This document shows, in pieces, positions 21,941 through 38,141 of a stretch of 64,000 nt of DNA. The notes below the pieces were generated by a model that was given only the letters and a program-made list of their open reading frames with translations, ran no database searches and was not told the DNA's origin. This DNA is from Chloroflexota bacterium (lineage in GTDB: Bacteria > Chloroflexota > UBA11872): assembly GCA_965263175.1 (NCBI GenBank), contig OZ253587.1:136105-200104 (forward strand), in the 5' to 3' direction. Position 1 is the stretch's first letter, and every line of letters begins with the position of its first letter. The translations under genes were made by a program, and so were the position numbers.

Positions 21941-21999
21941 CGCCACCCGGCTGTCGGCCTGGGGCGTGGCCACCCGCGCCCCGGACCTGCCCCCGAGAA

Positions 22000-22033
22000 G
22001 AGACCTTTGCACAACGCCCTTCGTCCGCGAAGG
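22000..22033. mobile_element. MITE left part, split by the IS1595-family insertion. The right part is at 24817-24914.
   Basis: GAGACCTTTGCACAACGCCCTTCGTCCGCGAAGG followed by the IS inverted repeat. The MITE resumes at ...CCGCGAAGGTGCGGCCC at 24817. Confidence 0.65.
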
Positions 22034-22061
22034 GGCTTATAGCGATAGCTAGCCAAACCGT

Positions 22062-22226
22062 CTAATCCGCGCGGGCCGCATCGCGCCGCGCCTGGGCCTC
22101 GCGCTCGAAGTCCCATTCGGCTTTCGGCGGCCCCTGCATAATGGCGCGCGCGATATTCTCCGGCGTGTCGGGGATTGGTTCGGGCAGCGGCTTGGGCGGG
22201 CGGCCGCGCGTGCGCTTCTTCGTCAT
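22062..22226 (-). CDS. small basic protein (54 aa) with an AT-hook-like RGRPPK motif, translationally coupled (ATGA overlap) to the methyltransferase
   Basis: MTKKRTRGRPPKPLPEPIPDTPENIARAIMQGPPKAEWDFEREAQARRDAARAD. The ATG overlaps the methyltransferase TGA. Not present in the ORF track because it is shorter than 60 aa. Confidence 0.35.
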   Translation of the reverse strand: MTKKRTRGRPPKPLPEPIPDTPENIARAIMQGPPKAEWDFEREAQARRDAARAD

Positions 22227-23782
22227 ACGAGCCTCATTTGCATCGGCTTGCCGGTGTACGGGTCGGCCATCAACGGCAAGACGGGCGGGAGCTGGTTGAA
22301 GTAGTCGGCCATGGACCAGCGTTGCATCCGCGGGTAGGCCATGCCGCCGACCTGAATCGTGCCCATGCCGGCCGTCTCGGTTCGCGCGGCGTGCGTGTCT
22401 ACGCGATCCACGGTGAGATAGCAGCCGAGGGCCGCGCGGTCACGGGCGATGACGTGGTTGAAGTCGCGCAAGTTGCCGAGGCTGAACGCGCCGCCCTTGA
22501 CTTGAGCGAGCGCGAGCCGCGTCACGTCGGCCTCGGGTTGCTCCCAGACCGTGCCCCGGCCGTCCACGCCACCATCCGCCACCTGCTTCGTATTGGGCAC
22601 AAAGCCATTAAGCCGGGTGACCGCGCAGGTCTCGAACGCGAACGGACGTTCGGCGGCCAGCTTGGATGCGCCCGCCAGGTCGTAGGGGATGCCGTAGGCG
22701 GGAATGCTTGGGTCTTGGAGCCGCCGGTCGCGGATCACGTCAATGGCAAAGGGCGAGATATCGACGCCAAGCCACGGGCGGCCCAACTTGTGCGCAGCCT
22801 CGACGGTCGTGCCGCAGCCGCAGAACGGGTCAAGCACAACGCCATCCCTTGGGCTGGACGCGGCGATCACACGCTCAAGCAATGCACGCGGTTTCTGGGT
22901 CGCGTAGCCGAGGCGCTCTTTTCCAAGAGCCACCGGGATGTCACTCCATAGATTGCTCACCGCCACGCCGTCCCATTCGTCACGGTACTGCTTGCGAAAC
23001 GGCTTGTTATTGGCGTTGTAGTGGATGCGGTTTTCGGCATGCAGGCGCTTGAGGTTGGCTCGACTGACACGCCAGCCGTGCGGCGGGTTGTGCCCGTTCC
23101 ATTCGTATTTCGGTGAGGCATGGAGACCTGCATCGCTGTACAGGTCAGCCACGGCTCGATAGACCCCTTGCTCATCGCGATGCTTGAACGGTCGCATGCC
23201 AGGCGTCTCTTTACGGACGCGCGGGATGGTCACGACGTGCTGCGGCTTGGCGTAAAACAAGACGAGGTCGGTCACCGTCCCGAACGTCCTGGTCGGACCA
23301 CGTGTGCCCTTGACGCCTGACCGCTCCCAAACGATCTGATTCCTGAAGTTCGCAGCACCGAAAATGCCATCAAGCAGGATTTTCAAGTAATGGCCTGCGG
23401 TCGGGTCACAGTGCAAGTAGAGGCCGCCCGTCGTCTTCAGCAGCCGATGGCAGTGTTCGAGCCGTTCGGCCATGTAGGTCAGGTAGCTGAGCATCCCCGA
23501 CGGCCCCAGGATGCTGTACAGGCCGACGATGGCGGCGTGCGCGGGCCGTGCGATGGCTGAACGGTAGGCGTCCATGCGTTCGGCCGCGTCCGCGTCCCAG
23601 TGCCACGTATCGGTGAAGGCGCGGTATTGCGCGCCGCCGACCGTCTTGCCAAACAGCACGTTGTAGTTCGATTGCGAGTTGAACGGCGGGTCGAGGTACA
23701 CGAGGTCCACGGTCTGATCGTCCCACTCGCGCATCCATTCCAGGCAATCGCCGTAGTACAGCGCGTTCAGCGTGGGGTGCAT
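22223..23782 (-). CDS. beta-class N6-adenine/N4-cytosine DNA methyltransferase (N6_N4_Mtase) with a C-terminal Mrr-like (PD-(D/E)xK) nuclease-type domain
   Basis: Motif IV VYLDPPFNS near the N-terminus, then motif I VLDPFCGCGTT. The C-terminus has ADGGVDGRG...(23 aa)...LAQVKGG, resembling the Mrr_cat DGGxDG...QxK signature. Confidence 0.6.
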   Translation of the reverse strand: MHPTLNALYYGDCLEWMREWDDQTVDLVYLDPPFNSQSNYNVLFGKTVGGAQYRAFTDTWHWDADAAERMDAYRSAIARPAHAAIVGLYSILGPSGMLSYLTYMAERLEHCHRLLKTTGGLYLHCDPTAGHYLKILLDGIFGAANFRNQIVWERSGVKGTRGPTRTFGTVTDLVLFYAKPQHVVTIPRVRKETPGMRPFKHRDEQGVYRAVADLYSDAGLHASPKYEWNGHNPPHGWRVSRANLKRLHAENRIHYNANNKPFRKQYRDEWDGVAVSNLWSDIPVALGKERLGYATQKPRALLERVIAASSPRDGVVLDPFCGCGTTVEAAHKLGRPWLGVDISPFAIDVIRDRRLQDPSIPAYGIPYDLAGASKLAAERPFAFETCAVTRLNGFVPNTKQVADGGVDGRGTVWEQPEADVTRLALAQVKGGAFSLGNLRDFNHVIARDRAALGCYLTVDRVDTHAARTETAGMGTIQVGGMAYPRMQRWSMADYFNQLPPVLPLMADPYTGKPMQMRLV

Positions 23783-23785
23783 GGC

Positions 23786-24730
23786 CTAGGCGATGAGGCT
23801 CGCGCCGGTGAGTTGCTTGCCCTCGAATCCCCGCACCATCGCGGTCATCTGATCGATGGTGTCGAGGCTGCGCTGGTTGTAGCGGCCCTCGAACTCGCGC
23901 ACGTAGCGATGCAAGTGCTTCGGACTCATCTTGTGGTACACGCCGTTGTGACCGCGCTTCAACAGGCTCCAGAAGCTTTCCAGGCCGTTCGTGTGGGCCT
24001 GATCGTTCACCCACTGGTGCGTGCCATGCCGGACGGTTTCGTGATAGGGCAGGCCGCGATAGGCCAGCGCTTCGTCCGTATAGACCAACGCGCCGGGGTG
24101 CGTCCGCTCGCGCACGAACGTCCGCAACGTGGGGCCGGTGGTGTTCGGTACCACGTCGGCGCTCACGCGGCCTGTGGCGCGGTCCCTGACGCCAGCGACC
24201 GGCGTCTTGCCCACGGTGCCGCCACCGGCGTAGAGCTTCTTGTCGGCGTGCTTGTTCTTCTCCAAGCCGCCCACGTACGTTTCGTCGGCTTCGACCGGGC
24301 CGGTGAACGCGGGGTTTTCGTCGCGCCAGGTCTCGCGGATGCGGTGCGCGAGACGCCAGGCCGACGTGTAGGCGATGCCGAGGTCGCGATGCAGCTTCAT
24401 GGCCGCCGTGCCCTTGATGCCGGTGGACATCAAGTAGACCGCGATGGCCCAGACCTGGTAGTCGAGATTCGAGTTGGCCATGAGCGTGTCGGTCTTGACC
24501 GAGAAGTGCTTGCGGCAGGTGCGGCAGCGAAACGGCTGTGGCTTGCGGGATTTGACATCGGCCACGTTCTCCGACTCGCAGCGGGGGCAGCGTACGCCAT
24601 CGGGCCATCGGGTCTCAACGAACCAGACTTCGGCGGCGTCATTGTCCGGGAACATCCGCGTCACGTCCAAGAGGGACAGACCCTTGCGCTCGGCTCGTCC
24701 CGGCCCCTTGCGGCTCATGTTGCGGCTCAT
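23786..24730 (-). CDS. IS1595 family (ISXO2-like) transposase
   Basis: N-terminal zinc ribbon CPRCESENV...RCRTCRKHF, then the VEADETYVGG...KNKHADKKL hallmark of DDE_Tnp_IS1595. Confidence 0.75.
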   Translation of the reverse strand: MSRNMSRKGPGRAERKGLSLLDVTRMFPDNDAAEVWFVETRWPDGVRCPRCESENVADVKSRKPQPFRCRTCRKHFSVKTDTLMANSNLDYQVWAIAVYLMSTGIKGTAAMKLHRDLGIAYTSAWRLAHRIRETWRDENPAFTGPVEADETYVGGLEKNKHADKKLYAGGGTVGKTPVAGVRDRATGRVSADVVPNTTGPTLRTFVRERTHPGALVYTDEALAYRGLPYHETVRHGTHQWVNDQAHTNGLESFWSLLKRGHNGVYHKMSPKHLHRYVREFEGRYNQRSLDTIDQMTAMVRGFEGKQLTGASLIA

Positions 24731-24816
24731 CGCTCACCCCTTCGAATTGATACACAATTCTAGCCACCACTCGAAGGGATGTCAAGGCTTTTGGCTAGCA
24801 TTCGCTATAAGCCCCT

Positions 24817-24914
24817 CCGCGAAGGTGCGGCCCGCTCTTGCTCCCTCTCCCTGTGGGAGAGGGTTGGGGTGAGGGTCTTCCGGGCAACAGTCCCTCGGGT
24901 TACGCAAAGGTCTC
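24817..24914. mobile_element. MITE right part (continuation of the 22000-22033 fragment)
   Basis: ...GCGAAGGTGCGGCCCGCTCTTGCTCCCTCTCCCTGTGGGAGAGGGTTGGGGTGAGGGTCTTCC...GCAAAGGTCTC. Confidence 0.65.
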
Positions 24915-25028
24915 TACCTAGCGGCAGATTCCATGCCCAAGTCTGGTAGAGTTCTATTCTGTCCACGCAAATTGCCAGCCAACCATTGGCATCGCAGCCC
25001 GGCGGCAGCGACGGAGGAACGAGGAATA

Positions 25029-26954
25029 GTGTCAACATTTAAAGCGAATGCGTTCCTACTCAAGAATATTCTTGACAATGTTGCCAACGGTAGCATCCAA
25101 CTCCCCGACTTCCAGCGCGGCTGGGTGTGGGACGACGACCGAATAAAGGACCTGCTGGTCAGCATTTCGCGCGGCTTCCCTATCGGTGCCGTGATGACTC
25201 TCGATGCCGGTGGGGACTTGCGGTTTCGAAGCCGCTTAGTCGAGGGCGTGGATTCGAATGGCGACGATCAAGCATCCGAATACCTGCTGGATGGCCAACA
25301 GCGTCTTACGTCGCTGTACCAGGCGCTGCGGTATGAAGGGCCGGTAGAAACCCGCCACCGACCTGGTGGAAGATGGGTCATCAAGCGATGGTATTACATC
25401 GATATGCAAAAGATTCTGAATCCCCTGATCGATCTGGAGGACACCGTCGTTAGCGTTCCTGAAGACCGAGTTGTCAGGTCAAATTTCGGCCGTGATATCA
25501 CTTTGGATCTGTCCTCGTCTGACTTCGAATTCAAGCATCATATGCTGCCCACCGAGAAAGTCATGAATATCATGGATTGGATGCTTGGATACCTTGGTTA
25601 TTGGAAGGATCGCGGCGAGCATCCGGAGGGTGACCCGGTTGCTTTCTTCACCCAGTTCAAGGCTGCCGTGCTGGACAACTTCACCGACTACCAGTTGCCG
25701 GTCATCAGCCTTGGAAAAGGGACGTCCAAGGAGGCTGTTTGCACGGTCTTCGAAAAGGTCAACACCGGCGGCGTAACTTTGAATGTGTTCGAGTTGGTGA
25801 CCGCCGCCTTCGCTGCGGAAGTGGGCGAGGACGATTTCTCGCTGCGGGACGACTGGGAAGCGCGAAGCAGGCGGCTACACTCGGAATTCGGCGTGCTTCA
25901 AGGCGTCGGCGCTGATCAATTCCTGCAAACGGTGACACTGCTGGCGACCCAAGCACGGCGCAGGCGAGCTACTTCTGAGACTCCGTCGAGTCAACTTCCC
26001 GGTATCGGCTGTAGGCGAGCAGACATCCTCAACCTGACGTTCAGCGACTACCAGACATGGGCCGACCGAGTGGAAGAGGGATTCAGGGTCGCCGCAAAGT
26101 ACCTGCGCGGCCAATTCGTTTTCACCAGGTACAACGTGCCTTACAACACCCAACTGGTTCCCCTGGCAGCGTTGTACGTTGAGTTGGGCAAGGAGTTGGC
26201 GCCCGCCAACGCGCAGGATAAGCTGAACCGCTGGTTCTGGTGCGGCATCTTCAGCGAAGCCTATGGCGGCGGCGGTGAGACTCAGTTTGCTCGTGACCTC
26301 GAACAGGTTGCCAACTACATCCGAGGCGGCGCCGAACCGGAACTTGTTAGCCAGGCGAGCTTTGTTCCCGAGCGGCTGTTGTCGTTGAGAACACGCAACA
26401 GCTCTGCCTACAAGGGTCTGTACGCGCTGCAAATGAAAAGCAACGCGGCTGACTGGCGCAGCGATGGACCCTTGACCTTCGCCACCATCCATGACGAGAA
26501 CATCGATATCCACCATATTTTCCCGGTCGCCTGGTGCAGGCATGCCGATCCGGAGGTGCCAAGACACCTGTACGACTCGGTAATCAACAAGACGCCGATT
26601 GACGCGCAGACGAACCGAATCATCGGTGGTAAGGCGCCGTCCATCTACTTACCCCGCTTGCGCCGTCGTGATATCGGCGAAGAAAAATTGAATCGAATTC
26701 TTGAATCGCATTGGATCGATCCCAAGCTGCTTGAGAGTGATCTTTTTGGCGACTGCTTCGTCGAGCGCGGTCAAGCAATGCTCGACTTGATCAACCGCAC
26801 GATGGGTAAGCCAGCCGTCGATGGGCGTCAGGTCTTTCGCGATGCGCTGGACTCCGCCGGTCTGGCTGAGCAGGACAGCGATGACGAGGTTGAGTACGAT
26901 CCCATCGGCGACAGCGCCTTTGGCGACGAGACACTGGGCGGCGACAATTCATAA
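25029..26954 (+). CDS. GmrSD-like type IV restriction endonuclease candidate (N-terminal DUF262, C-terminal DUF1524/HNH-like)
   Basis: N-terminus LPDFQRGWVWDDDRIKDLLVSI...DGQQRLTSLY (DUF262 DGQQR motif). C-terminus DIHHIFPVAW (DUF1524 His-Me finger). GTG at 25029 with a GGAGGAA RBS. The upstream ATG at 24933 is an alternative start. Confidence 0.65.
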   Translation: MSTFKANAFLLKNILDNVANGSIQLPDFQRGWVWDDDRIKDLLVSISRGFPIGAVMTLDAGGDLRFRSRLVEGVDSNGDDQASEYLLDGQQRLTSLYQALRYEGPVETRHRPGGRWVIKRWYYIDMQKILNPLIDLEDTVVSVPEDRVVRSNFGRDITLDLSSSDFEFKHHMLPTEKVMNIMDWMLGYLGYWKDRGEHPEGDPVAFFTQFKAAVLDNFTDYQLPVISLGKGTSKEAVCTVFEKVNTGGVTLNVFELVTAAFAAEVGEDDFSLRDDWEARSRRLHSEFGVLQGVGADQFLQTVTLLATQARRRRATSETPSSQLPGIGCRRADILNLTFSDYQTWADRVEEGFRVAAKYLRGQFVFTRYNVPYNTQLVPLAALYVELGKELAPANAQDKLNRWFWCGIFSEAYGGGGETQFARDLEQVANYIRGGAEPELVSQASFVPERLLSLRTRNSSAYKGLYALQMKSNAADWRSDGPLTFATIHDENIDIHHIFPVAWCRHADPEVPRHLYDSVINKTPIDAQTNRIIGGKAPSIYLPRLRRRDIGEEKLNRILESHWIDPKLLESDLFGDCFVERGQAMLDLINRTMGKPAVDGRQVFRDALDSAGLAEQDSDDEVEYDPIGDSAFGDETLGGDNS

Positions 26955-26959
26955 ACGTC

Positions 26960-27500
26960 TGAGAAAGCTCTGATTTAATCGCCGAGCGGTGACGGTCTAT
27001 GCTCACGCGTCACGGCTGCGTGGGGATGGGCGCGTTGCTGCCGTGGCCGCAACTGGAGCAGCGCATCCAGCCGGTCTATCCGACCAGCCAGCGCGGTCGG
27101 CCCCCTATCCGCTGGCCGCGATGCTGCGGATTCACTGCGTGCAACTGTTCGACAACCTCAGCGACCCGGCGATGGAGGACGCACTCTATGATATTGCGTC
27201 CATCCAGCGGTTGGTGGGGCTGGCGGCGCGGGCTGCCTGGGCGTGGACCGGCGGCCCGAGCATCAGGGCCGGGCGATCGACTGGCAGGTGGCCCAGCGGC
27301 CCGGGCAACGGTGGCGCTTGGCCCCGGGCGGCGAAGCCGCGCGAGCCGAGCGGCGCAAGGCGTCGATCCGAGCGAAGGTGGAGCATCCCTTTCGGTATGT
27401 GAAACGGCAGTTCGGCTACGCGTGGGTGCGGTATCGAGGCTTAGCCAAGAACCGGACTCGGCTCTGCCTGCTGTTTGGGCTAGCGAATCGCTAATCGCCG
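26960..27500 (+). pseudogene. internally deleted IS5-family transposase remnant (N- and C-terminal pieces in different frames)
   Basis: [36 protein letters not shown] (InsH N-terminus) and [39 protein letters not shown] (IS5 C-terminus). The DDE core is missing. Flanked by 14-bp direct repeats TAATCGCCGAGCGG at 26976 and 27492. Confidence 0.6.
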
Positions 27501-27762
27501 AGCGGCAGGCACCCGCCTAACGCGGGATCCGTGTGCCCTGTGCGGGGCCGCGCACAGCCCGACCACGGCTGAGGATAGCGTCCCGGCCCGAACGGCGGCT
27601 CTCCCGATGCCTCGCGGGCCCCATCGACGCCCTCCACACTCCGCGACCCTAGTTGTTCAGAGCTTTCCTAGGACTAGGCTCGGGATATAGTTCTGAGAGT
27701 TACGGGCGACGCTGTCCGACAGCCTTGGCTCGCCGAAAGAACCCGGCCTAGCGGAGGACTGC

Positions 27763-28137
27763 GTGGCGGAAACGCCTCTGAACGACACCTCGCACTGGAA
27801 CTCGTTTGGGGCTGTTGAGGGCGCGGTGGAGAAGCTGGCCCAAGGCCATGCGGCGCCGTTCGCCGTGTACCCGGACGAAGCTCCGCGCGGCGTTCCCTGT
27901 TACGTCCGCGGCGAGGACGCGGCCAAGCTGTCAAGGCTCTGGCGCAAGCGTGTCCGAGTCGTGGGACTGCTCCGACGTGATTCCAGCACGGCTCTGCCCT
28001 TGTCCATCCGCGACGTCACCAACACTCAGCTTCTTGAACCGCCAGCTGCCGAGCCCCAGGACCTCTGGGGCATCCTGCCGCCGAGTCCTGGCCCGACGCC
28101 CGAAGAGATCATCCGAGCGGGGTGGGATGGCGTCTGA
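27763..28137 (+). CDS. paralogue of the PIN-partner protein (conserved C-terminal module only)
   Basis: NSFGAVEGAVEKLAQG...RKRVRVVGLLRRDSSTALPLSIRDVTN...EEIIRAGWDGV is about 70% identical to the 21000-21357 module. Confidence 0.5.
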   Translation: MAETPLNDTSHWNSFGAVEGAVEKLAQGHAAPFAVYPDEAPRGVPCYVRGEDAAKLSRLWRKRVRVVGLLRRDSSTALPLSIRDVTNTQLLEPPAAEPQDLWGILPPSPGPTPEEIIRAGWDGV

Positions 28138-28219
28138 CCGTCCACGGCTCTACTGGGACTCGTGCTGCTTCATCTGGCACCGTACTGGAACAGAGACAGA
28201 TTGGCGGCGTGTGTGAAAT
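28127..28219 (+). pseudogene. truncated PIN toxin gene (second copy), only about 30 codons
   Basis: MASDRPRLYWDSCCFIWHRTGTETDWRRV*. The sequence diverges after codon 17, and a MITE sits about 35 bp downstream. Confidence 0.5.
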
Positions 28220-28253
28220 AAAGGCAAGTAAGCTAAAGGCCCGCCCCTATTGT

Positions 28254-28375
28254 GAGACCTTTGCACAACGCCCTTCGTCCGCGAAGGTGCGGCCGCTCTT
28301 GCTCCCTCTCCTCGGGGAGAGGGTTGGGGTGAGGGGTCTTCCGGGCAACAGTCCCTCGGGTTACGCAAAGGTCTC
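28254..28375. mobile_element. MITE-like element, full copy
   Basis: GAGACCTTTGCACAACGCCC...GGGTTACGCAAAGGTCTC. Same family as 7312-7434. Confidence 0.75.
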
Positions 28376-28416
28376 TATTGTGCGGGGGCGGGCCACTCAA
28401 CCTGAAAGGGGCTGAT

Positions 28417-28617
28417 ATGGGACGGAGTGTGACCCTGCGAATTACTACGGTGGTGTTGGTTGCAATCTTGCTGTTCGGCTATATCGGCTTTACTGAAGTC
28501 CGTATCTACACGCTCTTCAACTTCAACTGGCAGGCGATTCAGCGGATAGACGAGGCTGAGAAGCGAATACTTGAATATGAAGATGAAATTGCGCAATTCC
28601 GAGGAAGGACTAGGTAA
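28417..28617 (+). CDS. small membrane protein (66 aa) in a low-GC patch
   Basis: MGRSVTLRITTVVLVAILLFGYIGF... has one TM helix. About 45% GC. The TAATG overlap couples it to the next small ORF. Confidence 0.35.
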   Translation: MGRSVTLRITTVVLVAILLFGYIGFTEVRIYTLFNFNWQAIQRIDEAEKRILEYEDEIAQFRGRTR

Positions 28618-28763
28618 TGTACGGCGATCCGTTCCGGCCCCCAAAGCCAAAGCATATGTCAGTAGGTGATTATCTGAAGGCACAAGCGTTTCGAGGCTGT
28701 GTGTTGCCAATTGTAGGTCTTGCGATTCTCTTGGCTGTGCTCGTGAAACCAAAAGGCCCCTGA
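28617..28763 (+). CDS. small membrane protein (48 aa)
   Basis: MYGDPFRPPKPKHMSVGDYLKAQAFRGCVLPIVGLAILLAVLVKPKGP. Ends inside the terminator hairpin. Confidence 0.3.
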   Translation: MYGDPFRPPKPKHMSVGDYLKAQAFRGCVLPIVGLAILLAVLVKPKGP

Positions 28764-28786
28764 GCCAATGGTCGGCTCAGGGGCCT
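28753..28786. terminator. bidirectional intrinsic terminator-like hairpin GGCCCCTGAGCC-AATGGTC-GGCTCAGGGGCC
   Basis: 12-bp perfect GC-rich stem flanked by A/T-rich sequence on both sides. It separates convergent small-ORF clusters. Confidence 0.5.
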
Positions 28787-28794
28787 AGTAAATA

Positions 28795-28941
28795 CTATGC
28801 GCTTACTTTGATCTGCCACAGCCTCCACAGGACGACAAGGCCCGAAATAACCCATAGCGTTTCCGTTACCACAGGTATCACATAGTGCAGCAGCACGAAT
28901 GAAACTGGTGGGTCGGCGCTGATGAGCGCGCTAGTCATCAT
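28795..28941 (-). CDS. small membrane protein (48 aa)
   Basis: MMTSALISADPPVSFVLLHYVIPVVTETLWVISGLVVLWRLWQIKVSA. Its start overlaps the stop of another small minus-strand ORF (about 28931..29073). Confidence 0.3.
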   Translation of the reverse strand: MMTSALISADPPVSFVLLHYVIPVVTETLWVISGLVVLWRLWQIKVSA

Positions 28942-29078
28942 CCCGGTCCTTTAGGCGTTTTAGGATTCGCGGCAGGTTCCATGCAGCAGCCAGGGCAAGC
29001 ACTGACCACAGGAAATCGGCAATCCCGTCAGCCACGATTGAGATGGTTGCCGCCCAATCGCGTGATAAATACAAGAGA

Positions 29079-29273
29079 TCAATTCCCACGACGAACTTCC
29101 TTACAGGTCATACAGAAAATACTTCCATCGGGTCGATGCACCATGTTGGCCTCATTGCAGATAGGGCAGCGCATTCGACGACCAAAGAAAAAGAACCAAA
29201 TGAAGGCACGCCAGAACCAGTCCCAGGCGAGACGTGGGATGTTCAGGATTCGTTTCATGTGTTTGCCTTTCAA
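29079..29273 (-). CDS. small protein with TM segment and Cys4 zinc ribbon (CPICN...CMTC)
   Basis: MKRILNIPRLAWDWFWRAFIWFFFFGRRMRCPICNEANMVHRPDGSIFCMTCKEV. AT-rich codons. Confidence 0.35.
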   Translation of the reverse strand: MKGKHMKRILNIPRLAWDWFWRAFIWFFFFGRRMRCPICNEANMVHRPDGSIFCMTCKEVRRGN

Positions 29274-29322
29274 TTGAACAGCCCTGGGCAGGTTGTCCCA
29301 CCCACGGCTGCGAGCTTACATG

Positions 29323-29967
29323 CTACGACCTTGGTCTGTAGTCGCCGTCGCCGTATTGTGTCTTGTTCACGTCAATAGTAATAGAATCTTGGCATTTTCC
29401 AGTCCAAGGTGGATTACGGTCCCGCCAGTCCTGTGCACGGATTTTGTATTTGCCGTAGGTGTAGTCACTGTGTGACGGCTCACCTGATCCACCATCGGTT
29501 GTGTACATGTCGGAATTTCCACGCGAGACGTAGGTGCCCAAGAGTGGTGAAACGCCTGTTTCCCATCGGTACCACAACGCTGGTTCACCAAAGGCGATCA
29601 GGTAGCCGTCGTAGCACCATTCTGTCCGAGATGTGAGTTTGTACATCATGGCCCGAGTGATCGGGACACGGTGCATACGGATAACCGTTGTTTCCTTGCA
29701 CCTGACATCACCTGACGCCGCTGCCGACATTGCGGCCACGTTGAACATCGGGTAGTTTGGTGCGGCGCTCAGCACAGTGGTCGAGGCAAGTGGAACATCG
29801 CGAGTGATCACTTCAAATGTTTCAACCCCTGGTGGGTCAACCGGTACGTCGTCAATGGCAGGGGGTTCAGGTACCGGACCCTTCGCGCTGACGCTCCCGA
29901 TCATCAGGGCCGCCAGGAATGCAAGCCTCCGAAATTCAATTAACGCATTCAGGTGAAAAGTGGACAC
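29323..29967 (-). CDS. secreted hypothetical protein (Tat-like signal), low-GC
   Basis: Putative GTG start giving MSTFHLNALIEFRRLAFLAALMIGSVSA|KGP (RRxFL motif). About 50% GC against 68% for the genome. No family recognised. Confidence 0.4.
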   Translation of the reverse strand: MSTFHLNALIEFRRLAFLAALMIGSVSAKGPVPEPPAIDDVPVDPPGVETFEVITRDVPLASTTVLSAAPNYPMFNVAAMSAAASGDVRCKETTVIRMHRVPITRAMMYKLTSRTEWCYDGYLIAFGEPALWYRWETGVSPLLGTYVSRGNSDMYTTDGGSGEPSHSDYTYGKYKIRAQDWRDRNPPWTGKCQDSITIDVNKTQYGDGDYRPRS

Positions 29968-30038
29968 GTCGCCGGGAAAAGTGAACACATTCGGGCGAAA
30001 ATCGAACACATCGCCGCAAACACGGTGAACACGGCCTC
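29955..30038. repeat. four tandem about-21-bp direct repeats (GAAAAGTGRACACRTCGSCGS core), iteron-like
   Basis: Units at 29955, 29976, 29997 and 30018, lying at or within the 5' end and promoter of the secreted-protein gene. Confidence 0.6.
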
Positions 30039-30120
30039 CGCCTCCGTGTACGGCTGCCGGCACCCCAGCGGCGGCGCGTCGCCAATCCCGTCAGCCCCGC
30101 CCTGCCCGGCCGCGTCGACC

Positions 30121-30165
30121 CCTGAGCCGGTCGAAGGGCCTGCCCTGAGCCTTTCGAAGGGCCCA
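30121..30165. repeat. two tandem about-21-bp direct repeats, CCTGAGCCGGTCGAAGGGCCTG / CCCTGAGCCTTTCGAAGGGCC
   Basis: Seen in sequence, inside a 600-bp non-coding stretch upstream of pepF. Confidence 0.5.
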
Positions 30166-30590
30166 CTCATGGGTTCGCCCGAGCCTGTCCTGCACCGGTC
30201 GACTCACCCGCCACCACCGGCAGGCGGTGGCTTCTGTAAGAGGCCGCCTGGCGTGCCCACAACCCCGAGCCCCCAACTCCAGACTTGTCATTCGTAATCA
30301 TCTCGTGTACACTATCGCACAGCCCCCTTGCCCTGCCCCCGGAACTCCATGCCCCCACGTCATGCCCGTCTGCCCACCCTCCCCATCTTCCTCCGCACGC
30401 TCGGACTCTGCCCACGCTCCGTCCTCCCGGTATGCCCACACCCTTGGGCGTCTAGCCCTGCCCCAAAATCCCGCCCAAGCTGCCTCTGGCCAGAGGCAGT
30501 TCCCCCCTTCACCCCCCGCCGGACCCGCGGTGCGGGCAAACCGCCGATAATGCAGCCATACACCGACTGCACGACCACTAGGGAGCACGG

Positions 30591-32405
30591 ATGAGTACGA
30601 CCGCCGCGGCGCCGACCAGTAGCGCGGACGGGGTGACCTGGGACCTCAGCGTCCTCTACGACAACCCCGACGACCCGAAGATCGCGGCGGACCTTGATGC
30701 GGTCGCCGAGCGCGCCGCGGCCTTCGAGAAGCGCTACCGGGGGCAGGTTGCCGGCCTGGACGCGGCTGGCCTGCGCGACGCGGTATCGGAACTGCAGGAC
30801 ATCCACGAGGCCATGGACCATCCGGCCATCTACGCCCACCTGCTGCACGCCGGCAAGACGGACGAGCCGACCCATGGCCGGCTGGTGGTCCTCACTCAGG
30901 AACGCAGCACGGCTATCAACCGGCACCTGATCTTCTTCGACCTGGAGTGGATCAAGGTTGACGACGACCGCGCCGCGGAACTGTTGGCCGACCCGATCCT
31001 GCAGGACTTCGCCTACATGCTGCGCCTTGAGCGCCGCTACAAGCCCCACCGGCTGTCCGAGGGCGAAGAGCAGCTATTGGACGAAAAAGCCAACACCGGC
31101 AGCCGCGCCTGGAGCCGCCTCTTCGGCGAACTCACCAGCCGCCTCACCTGCGAGGTGACCCTGGCCGGGGAGACCCGCACGCTCACCCAGGCCGAAACCC
31201 TGGCCCTCAGCTACCACCCCGATCGCGAAGCCCGGAAGTCGGCGGCCGACGGCATGACCGCCACCCTGCGCGACAGCCTCCATCCCCTCACTTACGTCTT
31301 CAACATCCGCCTGCAGGACCACGCCACCGACGACCGGCTGCGCAGCTATCCCACGGCCATGGCTTCCCGCAACCTGGCCAACCAGATCACCCAGGACTCG
31401 GTGGATGCCCTGGTGGCGGCCTGCGTGCGCGGCTTTCCCATCGTGGGGCGCTACTACCGGCTCAAGCAGCGCCTGCTGGGTCTGGACGAACTGTTCGACT
31501 ACGACCGCTACGCCCCGCTCAGTTCCGACCTGCCGTCCTACGACTGGGCCATCGGCAAGGACGTGGTGCTGGAGAGCTACCACGCCTTCTCCAGCACGCT
31601 GGGAGGCATTGCCCAGCGGGCATTCGACGAGCGCTGGATCGACGCCGAACTGCGTCCCGCCAAGCGCGGCGGGGCCTTCAGCATGGGCGGCACGCCCAGC
31701 ACGCATCCCTACATCCTGGCGAGCTACACGGACACCGTGCGCGACGTGATGACGCTGGCCCATGAAATGGGCCACACCGTGCATCAGTACCTGTCCTACG
31801 GCGTGGGCTACCTGCAGGCGCATACGCCGCTGACCACGGCTGAAACAGCCTCGGTGTTCGGCGAGATGATCGTCTTTCGCCGCCTGCTCCAGGCCCAGCC
31901 CTCGGCCGCCGCCCGCCTGGGACTTCTGGCCAGCAAAATCGAGGACCACTTCGCCACGGTCTTCCGCCAGATCGCCATGCACAACTTCGAGTTCCGGGCC
32001 CACCAGGCCCGCCGCGAGGAGGGCGAACTCTCGTCGGACCGCCTCAGCGACCTGTGGTTCCAGGCCAATGGCGAGATGTTCGACGGCTCGGTAACGCTGC
32101 GCGACGACTACCGCGTCTGGTGGAGCTACATCCCCCACTTCATCGGCTCGCCCTTCTACGTGCATGCCTACGCCTTCGGCGACCTGCTGGTACTCGGACT
32201 GCTACAGCGCTACCAGGAGCAGGGCGCCGCCTTTGAGCCGCGCTACGTGGAGATGCTGTCCAAGGGCGGCTCGGTCAGCCCCAACGCGTTGCTCGAACCG
32301 TTCGGGATCGACCTGGCCGACCCGACCTTCTGGGACGGCGGCGTACGGCTGCTGGGCGACCTGGTGACCGAAGCCGAAACGCTGGCCGAGGAGGCCGTCA
32401 CGTGA
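30591..32405 (+). CDS. pepF: oligoendopeptidase F (M3B family)
   Basis: HEMGHTVH zinc motif (HExxH). About 604 aa with PepF-like architecture. An AGGGAG RBS lies upstream. Confidence 0.75.
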   Translation: MSTTAAAPTSSADGVTWDLSVLYDNPDDPKIAADLDAVAERAAAFEKRYRGQVAGLDAAGLRDAVSELQDIHEAMDHPAIYAHLLHAGKTDEPTHGRLVVLTQERSTAINRHLIFFDLEWIKVDDDRAAELLADPILQDFAYMLRLERRYKPHRLSEGEEQLLDEKANTGSRAWSRLFGELTSRLTCEVTLAGETRTLTQAETLALSYHPDREARKSAADGMTATLRDSLHPLTYVFNIRLQDHATDDRLRSYPTAMASRNLANQITQDSVDALVAACVRGFPIVGRYYRLKQRLLGLDELFDYDRYAPLSSDLPSYDWAIGKDVVLESYHAFSSTLGGIAQRAFDERWIDAELRPAKRGGAFSMGGTPSTHPYILASYTDTVRDVMTLAHEMGHTVHQYLSYGVGYLQAHTPLTTAETASVFGEMIVFRRLLQAQPSAAARLGLLASKIEDHFATVFRQIAMHNFEFRAHQARREEGELSSDRLSDLWFQANGEMFDGSVTLRDDYRVWWSYIPHFIGSPFYVHAYAFGDLLVLGLLQRYQEQGAAFEPRYVEMLSKGGSVSPNALLEPFGIDLADPTFWDGGVRLLGDLVTEAETLAEEAVT

Positions 32406-33721
32406 CGACGCCGAACGGGGTGCTGGAGGCCGTCGGATCTCCGGCCATCAGCCTGGCGGAGGTGGCCGGTCTGGTCGGCGAGGCTCTTCGGAGCGCCCCG
32501 GCCGGCGAGCGCCGCTTCCTGGTGCTGGTTCCCGACTCGACGCGCAAGGCCCCGGTGGCCGACGTGTTCCGCGCCATCCACGACGCCGTGGACGGCCGGG
32601 CCGACCGGGTGGACGCCATGATCGCCCAGGGAACTCACGGACCCATGTCCGCCGCCGAGAAGCGCGCCTGGGTATTCGGCGGCGCCCGCTACCCGCGCAG
32701 CACCGTCTTCGACCACGCCTGGGACGACCCTGACGCGCTGACGCCCCTGGGCGTGGTTCCGCTGGACGACCAACTGGACCGCTTCGGCGAGAACCGCGAA
32801 TTCGCGCCCCTGCTGGGGTTCGACGGCGACATGCGCATTCGCGTCAACGCCAAGCTGCTGGAATACGACCGCCTGGTGCTGCTCACCCGCGTGCAGCCGC
32901 ACGAGGTCGCTGGCTTCGCGGGCGGGGCCAAGCAAATCTTCCCCGGCGTCTCGGGCCCGGAAATGATCAGCCTGCTGCACGCCATCGGCAGCCTGCGAAC
33001 CAACCGCGGCATCCACGGCGTCATGCCCAACCCCGTGCGCGACCTGATCGACGACATGGCGCTGAACCTGCCCAACCCCATCACCACCATCGGGCTGGTG
33101 ATCGATGACGACAGCGACGCCATCCACGGCGCCTTCGTGCAGCCGGACGGCTGGCGCGAATGCGTGGAGCAAGCGGCCGCACTCAGCGCCGCCGTCAACA
33201 TCCGCTACGTCCCGCGGCGCGTCCGGCGCGTGGTGGCGGCCCTGCCCCAGCGTAAGGACGGCAGCTGGCTTTACCCCGACCTCTGGACCGGCGCCAAGGG
33301 CGTGCTCAAGACCGAGGACGCCGTGGCGGACGGCGGCGAACTGGTGGTCTGGGCGCCCAATATCGACTCCATCTCCGACGCCCACGGCGACCTCATCAGC
33401 ACCATCGGCTACCACACCTACGCCTACTTCCTCTCGCGACCCGAGTCCTGGCAGCGCGCCGGCGCCACGCCGCTGGCCCTGAACGGCAGCGCCCTGATGA
33501 AGGGCGAGGGCCGCATGGCCGCCGGCCGTGAAGTCCCCCGCATCGACGTGCGCATCGCCACTGCCATCCCGCCCGACGCCTGCGCCCGCATGAACATCGG
33601 CTACGAGAACCCCGACGCCGTGGCCGCCGAGATCGCCGCCACGCCCCCCAACGCCATCGCCGACGACCGCCTCATCGTCCCCAACGCCGGCGGCATCCTC
33701 TGGCGATATCGTGCATCCTGA
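32402..33721 (+). CDS. lactate racemase (LarA) N-terminal domain / DUF2088 family protein
   Basis: LVLVPDSTRKAPVADVFRAI...VDAMIAQGTHGPMSAAEK matches the LarA_N signature. GTGA overlap with the pepF stop. Confidence 0.55.
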   Translation: MTTPNGVLEAVGSPAISLAEVAGLVGEALRSAPAGERRFLVLVPDSTRKAPVADVFRAIHDAVDGRADRVDAMIAQGTHGPMSAAEKRAWVFGGARYPRSTVFDHAWDDPDALTPLGVVPLDDQLDRFGENREFAPLLGFDGDMRIRVNAKLLEYDRLVLLTRVQPHEVAGFAGGAKQIFPGVSGPEMISLLHAIGSLRTNRGIHGVMPNPVRDLIDDMALNLPNPITTIGLVIDDDSDAIHGAFVQPDGWRECVEQAAALSAAVNIRYVPRRVRRVVAALPQRKDGSWLYPDLWTGAKGVLKTEDAVADGGELVVWAPNIDSISDAHGDLISTIGYHTYAYFLSRPESWQRAGATPLALNGSALMKGEGRMAAGREVPRIDVRIATAIPPDACARMNIGYENPDAVAAEIAATPPNAIADDRLIVPNAGGILWRYRAS

Positions 33722-33873
33722 CGCGCCCCGCGTAGCCGCTCCCTCCGACCGGCTGGATCCCGTGACGCGCCCCCGATACGCTGGCCGCCGTGATGAATAT
33801 CCGCCGCTCGTATCGTCCCGTCCCCACAAGCTCACCATCAAGGTTCCCGGCGCCCGAGGGCCGCTAGTCAGCG

Positions 33874-34464
33874 ATGACCGTCAACCTTCTGCCGGAATTC
33901 ATCAGGTCGAACTACGAAGTTCACGAGACAAAGCACAGCTGCGCGATCCTCAGAGGCGACTTTCCTGGGGAATGGCGTGATCTGGTCGATATGCTGACCG
34001 AGTTCAGGCTGCTGGAAAGCTATGTGTCAACGCCGGGAGGCAGGAAGTCTCGGGTGTCAAGTTTTATAGACTCCTACTTGTATAACCGATGTTGGTTAGA
34101 GAAAGAGTTTGAAACCAAGGTGGTTGTGGACGGTCAAGAAAGCGAGCAGCCCACGCATAAGATCGACTGCTTCCGCAACCGGATAGCCTTGGAGATCGAA
34201 TGGAACAACAAAGACACGTTCTATGACCGCGACCTCAACAACTTCAGGCTGTTGTTCGATTTGCATGCGGTGAGTGTTGGAATTATCATCACACGGTCCG
34301 ACGACCTTCAGGAAATCTTCAATCAGCTGGGCCGGGGCAAGTCGTACGGGTCGTCAACCACACACATGTCCAAGCTGTTGCCGCGTTTGGCCGGCGGCGG
34401 CGGCGGCGGTTGCCCGGTTCTGGCTTTTGGTATCACGTCCAAGCTATATGTCCCTGGGGAATAG
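33874..34464 (+). CDS. type II restriction endonuclease, BglII/BamHI/BstYI family (R1)
   Basis: IDCFRNRIALEIEWNNKDTFYDRDLNNFRLLF...GIIITRSD aligns to the BglII core DFGKRDTLVEVQFSNYPFLLNN...AIIITKG (ExE variant). About 52% GC. Contains a (GGC)6 run encoding GGGGGG. Confidence 0.65.
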   Translation: MTVNLLPEFIRSNYEVHETKHSCAILRGDFPGEWRDLVDMLTEFRLLESYVSTPGGRKSRVSSFIDSYLYNRCWLEKEFETKVVVDGQESEQPTHKIDCFRNRIALEIEWNNKDTFYDRDLNNFRLLFDLHAVSVGIIITRSDDLQEIFNQLGRGKSYGSSTTHMSKLLPRLAGGGGGGCPVLAFGITSKLYVPGE

Positions 34465-34467
34465 GGC

Positions 34468-35136
34468 GTGAGCATCTCCCAGGGCCTGTTGGATGGATTT
34501 GAGGAACAGAGGTTTTCGACCATTCTCGCCGACCCACCGTGGCAGTTTCAGAACCGCACCGGCAAGGTTGCTCCAGAGCACCGGCGACTTTCCCGCTATC
34601 AAACGTTGTCACTGGAAGAGATCTGCGACCTTCCGGTAGCGTCCATAGCGGCTGATCCTGCACACCTGTACTTGTGGGTGCCCAACGCGCTATTGGCCGA
34701 AGGTCTCAAGGTCATGCAATGCTGGGGGTTTACGTACAAAACGAATCTCATCTGGTACAAGGTCCGAAAGGACGGCGGCCCGGACCGGCGCGGCGTCGGG
34801 TTCTATTTCAGGAACGTAACGGAGATTCTCCTATTTGGTGTACGTGGAAAGAACGCGCGAACCCTGCCACCAGGCCGCAGCCAGGAGAACATCATTACTT
34901 CAAGGAAACGGGAGCATAGCCGCAAACCGGACGAGCAGTACCCCATCATCGAGGCGTGCAGCCCCGCCCCACGAGTCGAGTTGTTTGCCCGCGGGTCCCG
35001 CCCCGGCTGGCATACGTGGGGCGACCAGAGCGAGAACTACACCCCGGACTGGAGTACGTACGCCAACCACTCCCAGGTCGTCCGGTCGCAGGAAGCACCA
35101 CGACCGCCATCCTTGCCGACAAGCGCGCGCTTATGA
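34468..35136 (+). CDS. MT-A70 family N6-adenine DNA methyltransferase (M)
   Basis: ILADPPWQFQNRTGK (DPPW motif). GTG start 4 nt after the R1 stop. About 52% GC. Confidence 0.7.
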   Translation: MSISQGLLDGFEEQRFSTILADPPWQFQNRTGKVAPEHRRLSRYQTLSLEEICDLPVASIAADPAHLYLWVPNALLAEGLKVMQCWGFTYKTNLIWYKVRKDGGPDRRGVGFYFRNVTEILLFGVRGKNARTLPPGRSQENIITSRKREHSRKPDEQYPIIEACSPAPRVELFARGSRPGWHTWGDQSENYTPDWSTYANHSQVVRSQEAPRPPSLPTSARL

Positions 35137-35316
35137 GTCTCGGCTGCCGGGAGTTCTAGACGGTGGGCACATTCAGAGGCGGTTGATGTCGGCAAGCCGG
35201 TGGTCCGCGCGACCCGTGGCATGCTCTGGTACTATTGAGCGTCCTGAATCGGGGCCGGCGCTTCAGGTCACCCGCTGTTGCGACCTTTGGTCGATCGCTA
35301 GGAGCGCACCCCAGCA

Positions 35317-35832
35317 ATGAGGACCGTCCACAAGTACTCGCACCTTGGCGGTGCTGAAATACTTCAGGTTCGCCATCCCGAAGTTATGGCCGATATTCGT
35401 GCTGTGATTACCGCCGTTGCGCCAACCGGGTTGATGATGGGTGCCGAAGCGACCTCGCACGGGCAGTGGTCCCACCCGCCCGTGGACGTAGCTGACCAGT
35501 TCGCAGTGGAGTTCCACAGCCGTGGATTCCAGACAGCCCGCGATCCAAACGCCGCTGTTGACGCTTGCGGGCAGATCGCCTTCGTCAAGCAAAAGGTCTA
35601 CGTCGAGGTTCAGCTTAGCGCGCAACCCTTCGTGTTTTACGACTCGGCAAAGTTCCAGCACTTCTATCACAATGGCCAGGCGGAGGTTGCCGTCAAAATC
35701 GGACTGGCTCACGCACGTTTCCAACCGGTGCCGCGCGGGGTGTCGGGCGCCGACCAGCCTCTGTGCGACATTGAGCGTATGAAGCACTGTTTTCCAGTTG
35801 TGCCGATTAGCGTCCTGTTGGTTGATGTCTAG
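35317..35832 (+). CDS. second BglII-family restriction endonuclease homologue (R2)
   Basis: N-terminus YSHLGGAEILQV aligns to BglII YNHADEILNPQ. Core VDACGQIAFVKQKVYVEVQLSAQPFVFYDS aligns to BglII DIDFGKRDTLVEVQFSNYPFLLNN, including the EVQ catalytic triplet. C-terminus GQAEVAVKIGL...CFPVVPISVLLV aligns to EGMKVAIIITKG...VFDVPIRLVGLI. Confidence 0.55.
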   Translation: MRTVHKYSHLGGAEILQVRHPEVMADIRAVITAVAPTGLMMGAEATSHGQWSHPPVDVADQFAVEFHSRGFQTARDPNAAVDACGQIAFVKQKVYVEVQLSAQPFVFYDSAKFQHFYHNGQAEVAVKIGLAHARFQPVPRGVSGADQPLCDIERMKHCFPVVPISVLLVDV

Positions 35833-35877
35833 AGCGGCCGCCTGTCCGGTCCGCTGACCGTCGTCCCTGCCAATCTG

Positions 35878-36591: not shown

Positions 36592-36734
36592 GGCGGCCAC
36601 TCTGCTCGTCTTTTTCGCTAGCTCGTACGCTGAGCGCGGGTCATTGCCGGCGGGTGACCTGACCCAAGCTCGCCTACTGAGGCAAGGTGGATCGTTTTGA
36701 TTCGCACGCGCCGGAACACTGTCCGGTAATCACT

Positions 36735-36758
36735 TGACACGCAACTAACTTGCATGTT
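36735..36758. promoter_or_regulatory. perfect inverted repeat GCAACTAAC-TTGCAT-GTTAGTTGC overlapping a TTGACA hexamer
   Basis: 9-bp arms with a 6-bp spacer, and no T-tract. Sits between the HAD gene and the TA operon 3' end. Candidate operator or structured site. Confidence 0.35.
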
Positions 36759-36818
36759 AGTTGCACTGTCAGGCCCGGCGCGAGTCGCTGCAACGTTGGC
36801 CAGCGACAGCTCCTCGGT

Positions 36819-37205
36819 TTATCTCCTAAACGTGATGTACGTCGGCGTGATTCTGACCCTGAATCGCTTGCCGGGATAGTTTTGGTGTATGGAGAAAGCG
36901 GATTCGATTAGTTCCCCGAGCTCAGCCACACGTCTAGCACCATCGGTTTCGTCGCAGGCAAATCCAATGTGTCCGAGTTTGCTTTGGCCAGGTGAATCGA
37001 GCGCCCCTTTTCTGCGGTCAATCCTCTGAAAGTCTCTTATGTTCCATGTGACAACTAGTGCGTCAATCGAATCGGCTAGATCCGAAACGACACGATCCGG
37101 GTTGCCTGGTAAGAGTAGGCTCAGAACGTTGATTACTTCATGCCCTCTCGCCTCGAAGGCCTCGGCCGTAGATCTCGGAACGCATTCGTCAATTAGCAGC
37201 CGCAT
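36819..37205 (-). CDS. DUF5615 family PIN-like protein (putative toxin)
   Basis: MRLLIDECVPRSTAEAFEARGHEVINV... matches the DUF5615 (Mut7-C-like) N-terminus. About 50% GC. Confidence 0.55.
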   Translation of the reverse strand: MRLLIDECVPRSTAEAFEARGHEVINVLSLLLPGNPDRVVSDLADSIDALVVTWNIRDFQRIDRRKGALDSPGQSKLGHIGFACDETDGARRVAELGELIESAFSIHQNYPGKRFRVRITPTYITFRR

Positions 37206-37240
37206 TGATCATCGGTTTCTACGCAGCCACAGCATAGTCC

Positions 37241-37897
37241 TTAACTTGCCAATGCCTCGTCATCGGATTCATGAAACCTGATCGCTGCATTTACATCCTG
37301 AATGGTTAGGGTTGGGAACTCGCTTATGATGGCGCCTGATTCATATCCGGCCTTGTGGAATGCCCATATCGCCGATGTGGGGATTCGTGTGCCGGATATA
37401 ACAGGTCGATTATGTGCAACGTACCTGTGCTTGGATATCCGGCCAACGTCGTCTTCTTGTCGCTGGCGCAGTCGATGCACAGCAGTGGACACCTCGCCTA
37501 TGACATCTTGCAGTTCGATGTCGAAGGTTGACTGCGCACCATCCTTGGCTAAGACGATCACGTCATCGCTCTGTTGGACGAATACATCTCGGCCTCTGGT
37601 AAAGAACCGAAGGCTTGCCCAAGGGTGCTCATAGTGCTCATGCAGCCACGCGCCGATCTTTCGCAGCGACTGGAGCGACGCTCTGTTGCGCAGAATGGCG
37701 AGCGTTCTGAGACCAACAACATCTCGAAATGAGTACAGACGCGAATAGGGACCGCGTCTCTTACGGGCTGATTCAGGTCTGAAGAACTCAGTCGCGTCCC
37801 AGTAGCGAAGACGCCGATCGGGGAGACCTGTCAGGCGGCACACCTGATCGGCGGTGAATGCCCTAATTGGGTTATCGAAGGAAATCTCAGAAAGCAC
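37241..37897 (-). CDS. MerR-type HTH fused to DUF433 (putative antitoxin)
   Basis: FTADQVCRLTGLPDRRLRYWD (MerR HTH). The C-terminus ISGTRIPTSAIWAFHKAGYESGAIISEFPTLTIQDVNAAIRFHE matches DUF433. 35 bp upstream of the DUF5615 gene. Confidence 0.55.
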   Translation of the reverse strand: MLSEISFDNPIRAFTADQVCRLTGLPDRRLRYWDATEFFRPESARKRRGPYSRLYSFRDVVGLRTLAILRNRASLQSLRKIGAWLHEHYEHPWASLRFFTRGRDVFVQQSDDVIVLAKDGAQSTFDIELQDVIGEVSTAVHRLRQRQEDDVGRISKHRYVAHNRPVISGTRIPTSAIWAFHKAGYESGAIISEFPTLTIQDVNAAIRFHESDDEALAS

Positions 37898-38141
37898 GTC
37901 AGCCTACGCCCCTTTCCGGCCTATGCTCCAGACCGAACAGGAAGTCTTCTGCCAACACTCACACCTCGGCGCTGTTCGGGCACGACCGAGAGTCTTGGCG
38001 AGCCTGCCGCACTCCTACAGCTCGCTTCTCCGACACTAGGCGATCCTCTCGGCCACGCCGGAGCGACAGTCGACCTTCCCAAACCTTAACATGGACATGC
38101 CGTTCTTCCCACCGACGGATAGTGTCCCGTCTTGACTTGGA

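Follow-up and report, generated by a model that had tools for sequence, protein, structure and literature searches.

A phased repeat array, a predicted outward-facing promoter and a covarying hairpin at the right-hand end of a variable defense island upstream of pepF in an uncultured Chloroflexota lineage

Introduction

What is a C-rich stretch with two sets of short tandem repeats, and apparently without genes, doing directly in front of pepF? The stretch lies at 29955-30590 of a 64,000-nucleotide window (the whole piece of the Chloroflexota bacterium contig OZ253587.1 that was analyzed), between a gene for a secreted protein and pepF. A first-pass annotation, made from the sequence alone, had described it as 650 bp of non-coding DNA with an array of ~21-bp units (here repeat A) and a second tandem pair (here repeat B), and had offered three readings: a regulator-binding array, replication or partition iterons of an integrated element, or an attachment-site remnant. 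By its PepF sequence the window belongs to an uncultured Chloroflexota lineage whose nearest loci share 93-95% amino-acid identity; an exact-sequence look-up of the window PepF returned no record. Comparison with related loci (designated by L numbers) indicates that the odd-looking intergenic stretch is the stable edge of a gene-flux hotspot, for which exact empty and occupied boundaries can be given in this lineage, and that the edge carries a conserved module which we tentatively read as a protein-binding array upstream of an outward promoter.

A variable insertion upstream of pepF

In the window and nine relatives the gap between pepF and a solute-binding-protein-like gene (18648-20522 in the window) holds a variable insertion of 2 to >10 kb. 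Occupied sites with differing gene sets were found in the window, L001, L003, L004, L008, L204, L206, L209, L210 and L211, whereas the site is empty in L205, L208, L203 and L005, with 85-130 bp between the two genes. L205 and L208 fall in the same 90%-identity PepF cluster, and the PepF sequences of L203 and L005 show 82% and 77% identity, respectively. By comparison of empty with occupied sites, the insertion in the window, a defense and toxin-antitoxin island, was delimited to 20523-30530 (no strand assigned). It starts after the stop codon of the solute-binding-protein-like gene and ends at the ancestral pepF upstream region, with its right boundary at ~30531, just left of TGCGGGCAAACCGCCGATAATG. 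Because the comparison puts the boundary there, the 650-bp "intergenic region" is the conserved right-hand end of acquired DNA and not an old intergenic region. The arrays had been proposed to border acquired DNA; they do, and are in fact part of the insertion.

Original pepF upstream sequence makes up only the last ~60 nt of the 650-bp stretch. This ancestral region (30531-30590, plus strand), recognized by comparing the empty site of L205 with occupied sites and present in the empty-site genomes too, holds a GATAAT −10-like hexamer (30546-30551) and a GGGAG ribosome-binding site (30581-30585) ahead of the pepF ATG at 30591. To it belongs a ~40-nt block (ACCGCCGATAATGCAGCCATACACC..., 30540-30578) that recurs at 21902-21943. 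The "repeat B in front of pepF" of the first-pass annotation is most plausibly this block, and not another CCCTGAGCC unit.

At its other end the stretch meets a low-GC cargo gene that codes for a secreted protein (29323-29967, minus strand), whose 5′ end overlaps unit 1 of the array and which replaces the left flank and the first units of the window element. Its start is most likely the GTG at 29967; in the alignment with its homologue P0135, which runs from that protein's own Met, the signal peptide is equally long. Because the gene most likely starts there, the non-coding stretch extends from ~29968 to 30590, so that the earlier claim of 650 non-coding base pairs holds from ~29968 onward and 29955-29967, with the GTG start inside unit 1, is probably coding. 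A tie between this gene and the array was considered and rejected, as homologues occur in other genomes without nearby arrays. The remainder is C-rich (44.5% C and 24.5% G in 30040-30590) and, as had been stated, without a convincing open reading frame (ORF); the frames present there are not kept between relatives. A scan of 29000-31500 against Rfam 15 returned only chance-level matches (E ≥ 1).

Across the window and eight relatives (L001, L003, L004, L008, L204, L209, L210 and L211) the parts of this right-hand end follow a common order: one or two 21-bp arrays, two to four B units, a sigma-70-like promoter, a C-rich segment of 170-260 nt and a long hairpin, which sits within an almost invariant block, followed by the pepF upstream region. 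In L206 one deletion took arrays, B units and promoter together, and the distal part with the hairpin remains. Identity over the module is ~69-84%, as against 88-91% for pepF DNA. The first-pass annotation had overlooked the covarying hairpin, the conserved promoter and the absence of the whole stretch from empty-site relatives.

The repeat A array

Both sets of repeats are real and lie where they had been placed. Repeat A (29936-30038, plus strand; unit search, Tandem Repeats Finder (TRF), blastn and nhmmer) comprises three 21-bp units, GAAAAGTGGACAC at 29955, GAAAAGTGAACAC at 29976 and GAAAATCGAACAC at 29997, with 0-2 mismatches, and a terminal GTGAACAC (30026-30033) within a terminal CAAACACGGTGAACAC (30018-30033); to their left is a decayed unit (~29936-29954, TTAACGCAT at ~29940). 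TRF reported 29942-30011 with period 21, 3.3 copies and a score of 61. The repeat A 13-mer matched three times in the window, each time in the array, compared with 0.54 matches expected from shuffled sequence. The full element of ~230 bp consists of a ~100-nt conserved flank and then 5-7 units, of which the window retains the right-hand part with ~4.5 units, the left flank and at least two first units being gone. Placed by blastn (29957-30032 against L008 5044-5119, 84% identity), the window copy represents the last units of a TGAACAC-type array, and an nhmmer profile of 12 full elements gave one match in the window (E = 5e-18), to the array half only.

A logo of 45 units from six genomes, including the window, reads gAAAa-S-TG-R-ACACAT-y. 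ACAC is the same in all units, the TG, R and AT around it are strongly conserved and a ~8-nt spacer is free to vary. Cores are spaced at 21 bp, at 22-23 bp before the last unit, or at 32 bp, that is, at two or three helical turns, and every unit carries a phased A-tract. Coding was considered for the array, which is spanned by an open frame in L001 with LDTLARK-like heptads, and rejected: the invariant core bases include would-be third codon positions of that frame, and the 32-bp spacing breaks the reading frame while keeping the helical phase. Because of these two observations the array points to sites recognized on one face of the DNA rather than to coding sequence. Among the readings of the first-pass annotation it is the regulator-binding array that the data favor, in that the units of this AAASTGRACACAT array behave like conserved protein-binding sites, with invariant cores, free spacers and one-face spacing.

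The element is present once in the islands of L001, L003, L210 and L211, twice in those of L004, L008 and L204 and four times in that of L209, all copies in a single orientation. Where arrays are adjacent (L004, L008, L204 and L209), the first has TGAACAC cores throughout and the second TGGACAC cores, and the second ends in the palindrome TGGACAC-C-TGTCCA. Elsewhere the core is essentially absent across 262 kb of the lineage. As to uniqueness, both repeat motifs occur only here within the 64-kb window; beyond it, the array element is also found in the islands of relatives and the core of repeat B is widespread. The searches of plasmid and phage collections that had been proposed likewise divided the two repeats, with none for repeat A and more than 120 viral contigs for the repeat B core. 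No relatives of repeat A were found by blastn among 72,556 plasmids (PLSDB) and 50,697 phages (INPHARED), and IMG/VR contained no match for array-specific patterns and none for the array, flank or hairpin block; a looser array pattern gave two unrelated matches there, one a heptad repeat in coding sequence, the other an AT-rich array. In a metagenome scan for three GRACACAT cores at 21-bp spacing, the matches listed were unrelated perfect tandem repeats, none of them homologous to the array, and they have no bearing on its distribution.

Several known site types were compared with the units and rejected. Some units match 7 of 9 positions of the DnaA box TTGTCCACA, but the wrong positions are conserved, and in our own comparison with the logo (TTGTCCACA against GTGTYCAS) the conserved ACAC is not the CCACA part of the box. 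For LexA Cheo boxes and ARG-box dyads the right half-site is not conserved, and a Chi-like hotspot is at odds with the scarcity of the core outside the arrays in the 262 kb. Integron sites do not fit either, since the units are direct and non-palindromic, the hairpin flanks do not conform to attC core sites (RYYYAAC...GTTRRRY) and no integrase was found.

Repeat B, a widespread short repeat

Repeat B (30120-30163, plus strand) consists of two tandem units, CCCTGAGCCGGTCGAAGGGCC (30120-30140) and CCCTGAGCCTTTCGAAGGGCC (30143-30163), of the form CCCTGAGCCNNTCGAAGGGCC, with a period of 23 bp and 90% identity, followed by a degenerate third unit at ~30186-30205. Relatives have 2-4 units at the same place. 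Two matches were found in the 64-kb window, compared with 0.03 expected from shuffled sequence. Each unit in the window agrees at 18 of 19 positions with a widespread core, CCCTGAGCYTGTCGAAGGG, of which relatives hold exact copies. The exact core was found, almost identical in sequence, in more than 120 IMG/VR viral contigs (a lower bound) ranging from 34 to 72% G+C, as compared with a chance expectation of ~1 match, assuming ~6x10^10 bases in IMG/VR (the collection size is our own estimate). Viral examples among loci L212-L331 include L212 273-291, L223 13245-13263, L258 and L266. Among 139 core instances listed, ~25% have an inverted partner and ~12% are tandem; the inverted pairs give hairpins with CCGTTCGCCCTGAGCYTGTCGAAGGGC arms of ~27 nt. 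Low-GC metagenome contigs contain variants of B too, as does the DNA ahead of pepF in L010, another Chloroflexota genome.

Because its core is spread across phyla and viral contigs, repeat B is a copy of a widespread short repeat and not a locus-specific iteron. Like repetitive extragenic palindromic sequences (REPs), bacterial interspersed mosaic elements (BIMEs) and miniature inverted-repeat transposable elements (MITEs), it is ~20-27 nt long, solitary, tandem or in inverted hairpin pairs, and scattered in intergenic DNA. REPs, however, are species-specific, whereas the B core is near-identical across viruses and contigs of 34-72% G+C. No associated transposase was found, no Rfam family matched the hairpin-type B elements of nine viral loci scanned, and no paper was found with the B sequence or its peptide translations. 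The core may be a mobile or regulatory short element for which no description was found, and a short sequence kept so constant in such dissimilar genomes and viruses may merit a study of its own.

Two metagenome contigs of 40% G+C carry arrangements reminiscent of these repeats. In L084 (1600-1800) a tandem 21-bp array mixes B-like CCCTGAGCCTGTCGAAGTGTT units with opposite-strand GAACACAT units; it is the only place with A-like and B-like cores in one array and may be a coincidence. In L170 a divergent intergenic region (3790-3940) has direct GGACACATTTGTGCCC repeats and a perfect palindrome, GTGGACACAATTGTGTCCAC, with two exact B cores 3-4.5 kb away. The region has an operator-like look and shares the GTGGACAC half-site.

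Promoter, leader and hairpin

Downstream of repeat B, a sigma-70-like promoter facing pepF was recognized at 30285-30313 (plus strand; TTGTCA-17 nt-TACACT) by a promoter scan and as an alignment block. It is the only promoter-like site in 29800-30700, where 0.1 would be expected, and a promoter was also predicted at the homologous place in L204, L008 and L211 (−10 TACAAT), and nowhere else in the module. From it a predicted leader (30316-30479, plus strand) extends toward the hairpin, distinguished by composition, fold z-score and alignments. It is C-rich and G-poor (52% C and 18% G in 30316-30480, GC skew down to −0.34), with no excess of RNA structure (fold z-score −0.27). A coding role for the leader was considered, as a Shine-Dalgarno-like motif followed by an ATG or GTG is conserved, and rejected: the frame, taken relative to the conserved blocks, differs between genomes and the indels are not multiples of three.

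The most conserved block of the module (30461-30517, plus strand; alignment A2) consists of CCCCAAAATCC..CCCAAG, the hairpin CTGCCTCTGG/CCAGAGGCAG at 30480-30499 and TTCCCCCCTTCACCCCCC, in that order. The hairpin of relatives is a perfect 23-bp stem. When these 23 pairs were followed through ten sequences, all 213 testable pair positions were paired; both partners had changed in four stem pairs, and a change confined to one partner was seen in none. These values were not attained in any of 500 shuffles, and slid controls came nowhere close. The window stem carries one compensated change (U-A to C-G) and, through a deletion between two CTGGCCAG direct repeats, is missing its inner ~30 nt, so that a 10+10 palindrome remains at 30480-30499. 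The flanks of the hairpin (CCCCAAAATCC..., ...TTCCCCCCTTCACCCCC) are conserved beyond pepF itself.

This arrangement recalls the outward promoters and terminal hairpins of islands and insertion sequences (IS), with which it has in common a sigma-70-like promoter near the end, directed toward a core gene, and a strong hairpin before the host gene. It differs from those ends in that the promoter lies ~220-300 nt from the boundary, the C-rich leader is long and the hairpin lacks a U-tract.

Possible roles of the module

The conserved cores and their spacing, the promoter, the pairing of the hairpin and the history of the insertion, as read from aligned sequence, together suggest protein binding, promoter control and termination. 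The reading we favor, which we hold tentatively and would not call probable, takes repeat A for a phased array of protein-binding sites ahead of the outward promoter of the island, with a transcript that ends at the hairpin. A sequence-specific DNA-binding protein would sit on the sites side by side, once per two helical turns, along one face of bent DNA, and the complex of protein and array would control the outward sigma-70-type promoter 175-250 bp downstream; the repeat B pair is lodged between array and promoter. The promoter would give rise to a C-rich, unstructured leader ending at the hairpin just before the pepF upstream region. The hairpin would probably act as a terminator, attenuator or insulator between island and pepF, and Rho might enter at the G-poor leader. 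Seen in this way the stretch is a lineage-specific member of a broad class that takes in phased arrays of binding sites as well as small intergenic repeat elements. If protein binding is true, it would be a first handle on the regulation or assembly of such defense islands in a poorly studied phylum, and the covarying hairpin and the outward promoter are concrete, testable elements.

A number of observations weigh against this reading. No candidate binder is consistently encoded nearby: a DUF433/helix-turn-helix (HTH) gene abuts the array in L008 and L209 only. Two extra arrays in L209 are far from any promoter copy, the distance from array to promoter varies over 175-252 bp and is not phase-locked, and pepF does without the module in empty-site relatives. 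No U-tract follows the hairpin, TTCCCCCCTTCACC standing there, and a terminator scan found none; because of the missing U-tract the hairpin is not a canonical intrinsic terminator. The putative promoter and terminator roles are read from consensus matches and covariation. The window copy itself, besides its lost flank and units, has two remaining cores off consensus (ACACGT and TCGAACAC), and because the array is partly decayed its activity in the window may be reduced or lost.

The DUF433/HTH (MerR-like) genes of L008 (3807-4895, array at 4915-5137) and L209 (1408-2540, array at 2542-2685) are divergent from the A array. Their conserved upstream region abuts the array, which makes the protein a candidate binder, although the association is not general. 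A DUF433/HTH protein is also encoded at 37241-37897 of the window, and the 252-amino-acid partner of the PIN toxin (L204 5763-6521) is a further candidate.

The decay of the window copy would also suit an unlikely alternative, that the stretch has no present function, repeat A being a decaying tandem remnant and repeat B selfish repeats, both persisting only because the island is young. Its two mutated cores, the loss of arrays, B units and promoter in L206 and of the whole island in L205 and L208, and the lower identity of the module (~69-84%) than of pepF DNA (88-91%) are all in keeping with this view. Neutral tandem decay, however, would not leave a near-invariant core between randomized spacers across 45 units; helical phasing is kept, 32-bp spacing included, and the hairpin and its flanks are conserved beyond pepF, with compensatory changes.

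That the arrays all point the same way and occupy the conserved end of an insertion that is hypervariable raises the question of recombination or transposition sites, bound by a recombinase or transposase at a mobile-element end or serving as a cassette-capture hotspot. Foreign low-GC DNA abuts arrays or is joined within them, on the left side in the window and in copy b of L209 and on the right side in copy a of L209, and two sites, 21902-21994 in the window and 1342-1749 in L001, bear relics of insertion-duplication. The units of 21-22 bp match the binding-site arrays of TnsB and MuA, and Tn7- and Mu-like ends share with this locus direct, closely packed ~22-bp sites at a conserved end and a variable, defense-rich cargo downstream of a conserved gene. 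Unlike those ends, the locus has no inverted far-end array, no minus-orientation cluster being found in the window or any locus, and no tnsABC or MuA-like gene; no DDE gene and no other transposase or integrase is linked to the arrays, and the IS4 gene of L209 represents a separate, unrelated insertion. Measured from the boundary (~30530), the arrays lie 500-900 bp inward and not at a terminus, and truncated copies would be explained by the deletion-prone nature of tandem repeats anyway. We regard this explanation as improbable. No evidence was found for the attachment-site remnant of the first-pass annotation, there being neither an integrase nor an inverted partner array.

Somewhat more doubtful still is the iteron reading, in which the arrays are replication-origin or partition (centromere) repeats of an integrated plasmid-like element, or decoys that titrate the initiator of an invader. 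Several features are shared with theta plasmid and P1 iterons (R6K 7 x 22 bp, P1 incC/incA, F ori2): 5-7 direct ~21-bp repeats (3-4.5 units in the window) with a period of two helical turns, an asymmetric core with a variable spacer, and neighboring array pairs, those with TGAACAC and TGGACAC cores in L004, L008, L204 and L209 recalling the paired arrays of P1 and the F plasmid. The palindrome TGGACAC-C-TGTCCA resembles iteron-derived operators, a related inverted repeat at one end being likewise shared with such systems, and the setting is acquired DNA. Yet here the repeats are chromosomal, within a defense island, and neither an initiator gene nor other evidence for replication or partition iterons was found. 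Scans with Pfam, NCBIfam and PADLOC identified no integrase, transposase, Rep or Par among the ORFs of the window island, only toxin-antitoxin, restriction-modification, GmrSD and unknown proteins, and none of the island genes screened (window, L001, L003, L008, L204, L206 and L209; in relatives, selected ORFs were scanned and precomputed Pfam annotations used) was a rep, par, relaxase or integrase gene. There are no DnaA boxes and no AT-rich unwinding element beside the arrays, whose flanks have 63-68% G+C, and the plasmid, phage and IMG/VR searches described above returned no similarity to the arrays. We give equally little weight to the idea that the A element is a cis site of an undescribed island mechanism, either a recombinase-independent or trans-encoded platform for cassette capture or an initiator-titrating, iteron-like decoy; the former would work much as an integron does, but no integrase is encoded in the examined islands.

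Least probable of all, and in our view very unlikely, is a role at the RNA level, for example as the 3′ untranslated region of a PIN toxin operon with repeated binding or cleavage sites, by analogy with type III antitoxins or sponge RNAs. In L003, L204 and L210 the element begins 15-100 nt past the stop of a PIN-domain gene on the same strand, and the units are direct and in a single orientation. Type III antitoxin repeats are 34-40 nt long and precede the toxin gene, with a terminator between. The units here, however, are of 21 nt, follow the PIN gene, where there is one, and have no toxin gene after them; the arrays of the window, L008 and L209 have no upstream PIN gene, no Rfam match was found, and helix-tracking spacing (21 and 32 bp) with phased A-tracts fits DNA recognition better. 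Each of these four rival readings fails in one or more of the defining tests applied here.

Island cargo and neighboring insertions

The cargo of the window island includes a 252-amino-acid protein paired with a PIN toxin, a type II/III-like methyltransferase (N6_N4), a GmrSD-type nuclease, small unknown ORFs and the low-GC secreted-protein gene. Within it, at 21902-21994 (plus strand), blastn against L001 (5943-5984 and 1513-1569) revealed a decayed second pepF upstream block fused to a piece of the solute-binding-protein-like gene from its 3′ end. A decayed junction in L001 (1342-1749) similarly joins sequence copied from the upstream or 5′ region of pepF to a 3′ fragment of the solute-binding-protein-like gene. 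Both junctions are probably relics of insertion-duplication at the hotspot (Campbell-type integration of circularized fragments).

Further insertions relative to close relatives were observed at 33715-35877, ~36640-38205 and ~41100-42290, containing a BglII-type endonuclease with an MT-A70 methyltransferase, a DUF433/MerR-type gene, and a third block. The whole neighborhood is a mosaic of small islands. The calls of pepF as split or truncated in L210 (2094-3862) and L211 (2052-3383), both low-coverage long-read assemblies, are probably assembly frameshifts and not real pseudogenes.

A dispersed element of ~100-130 bp, a hairpin CTCCCTCTCCC-tgt-GGGAGAGGG followed by TTGGGGTGAGGG, was also noted. 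Copies in the window lie at 7302-7447, 18774-18860, 24816-24917, 28242-28380 and 61483-61604 (minus strand), and copies in relatives at L002 1926-2072 and 5965-6013, L003 7830-7958, L004 3143-3252 and L008 869-1004. The GmrSD block of the island has a copy on either side, and in three relatives the element is found between pepF and a larA-like gene.

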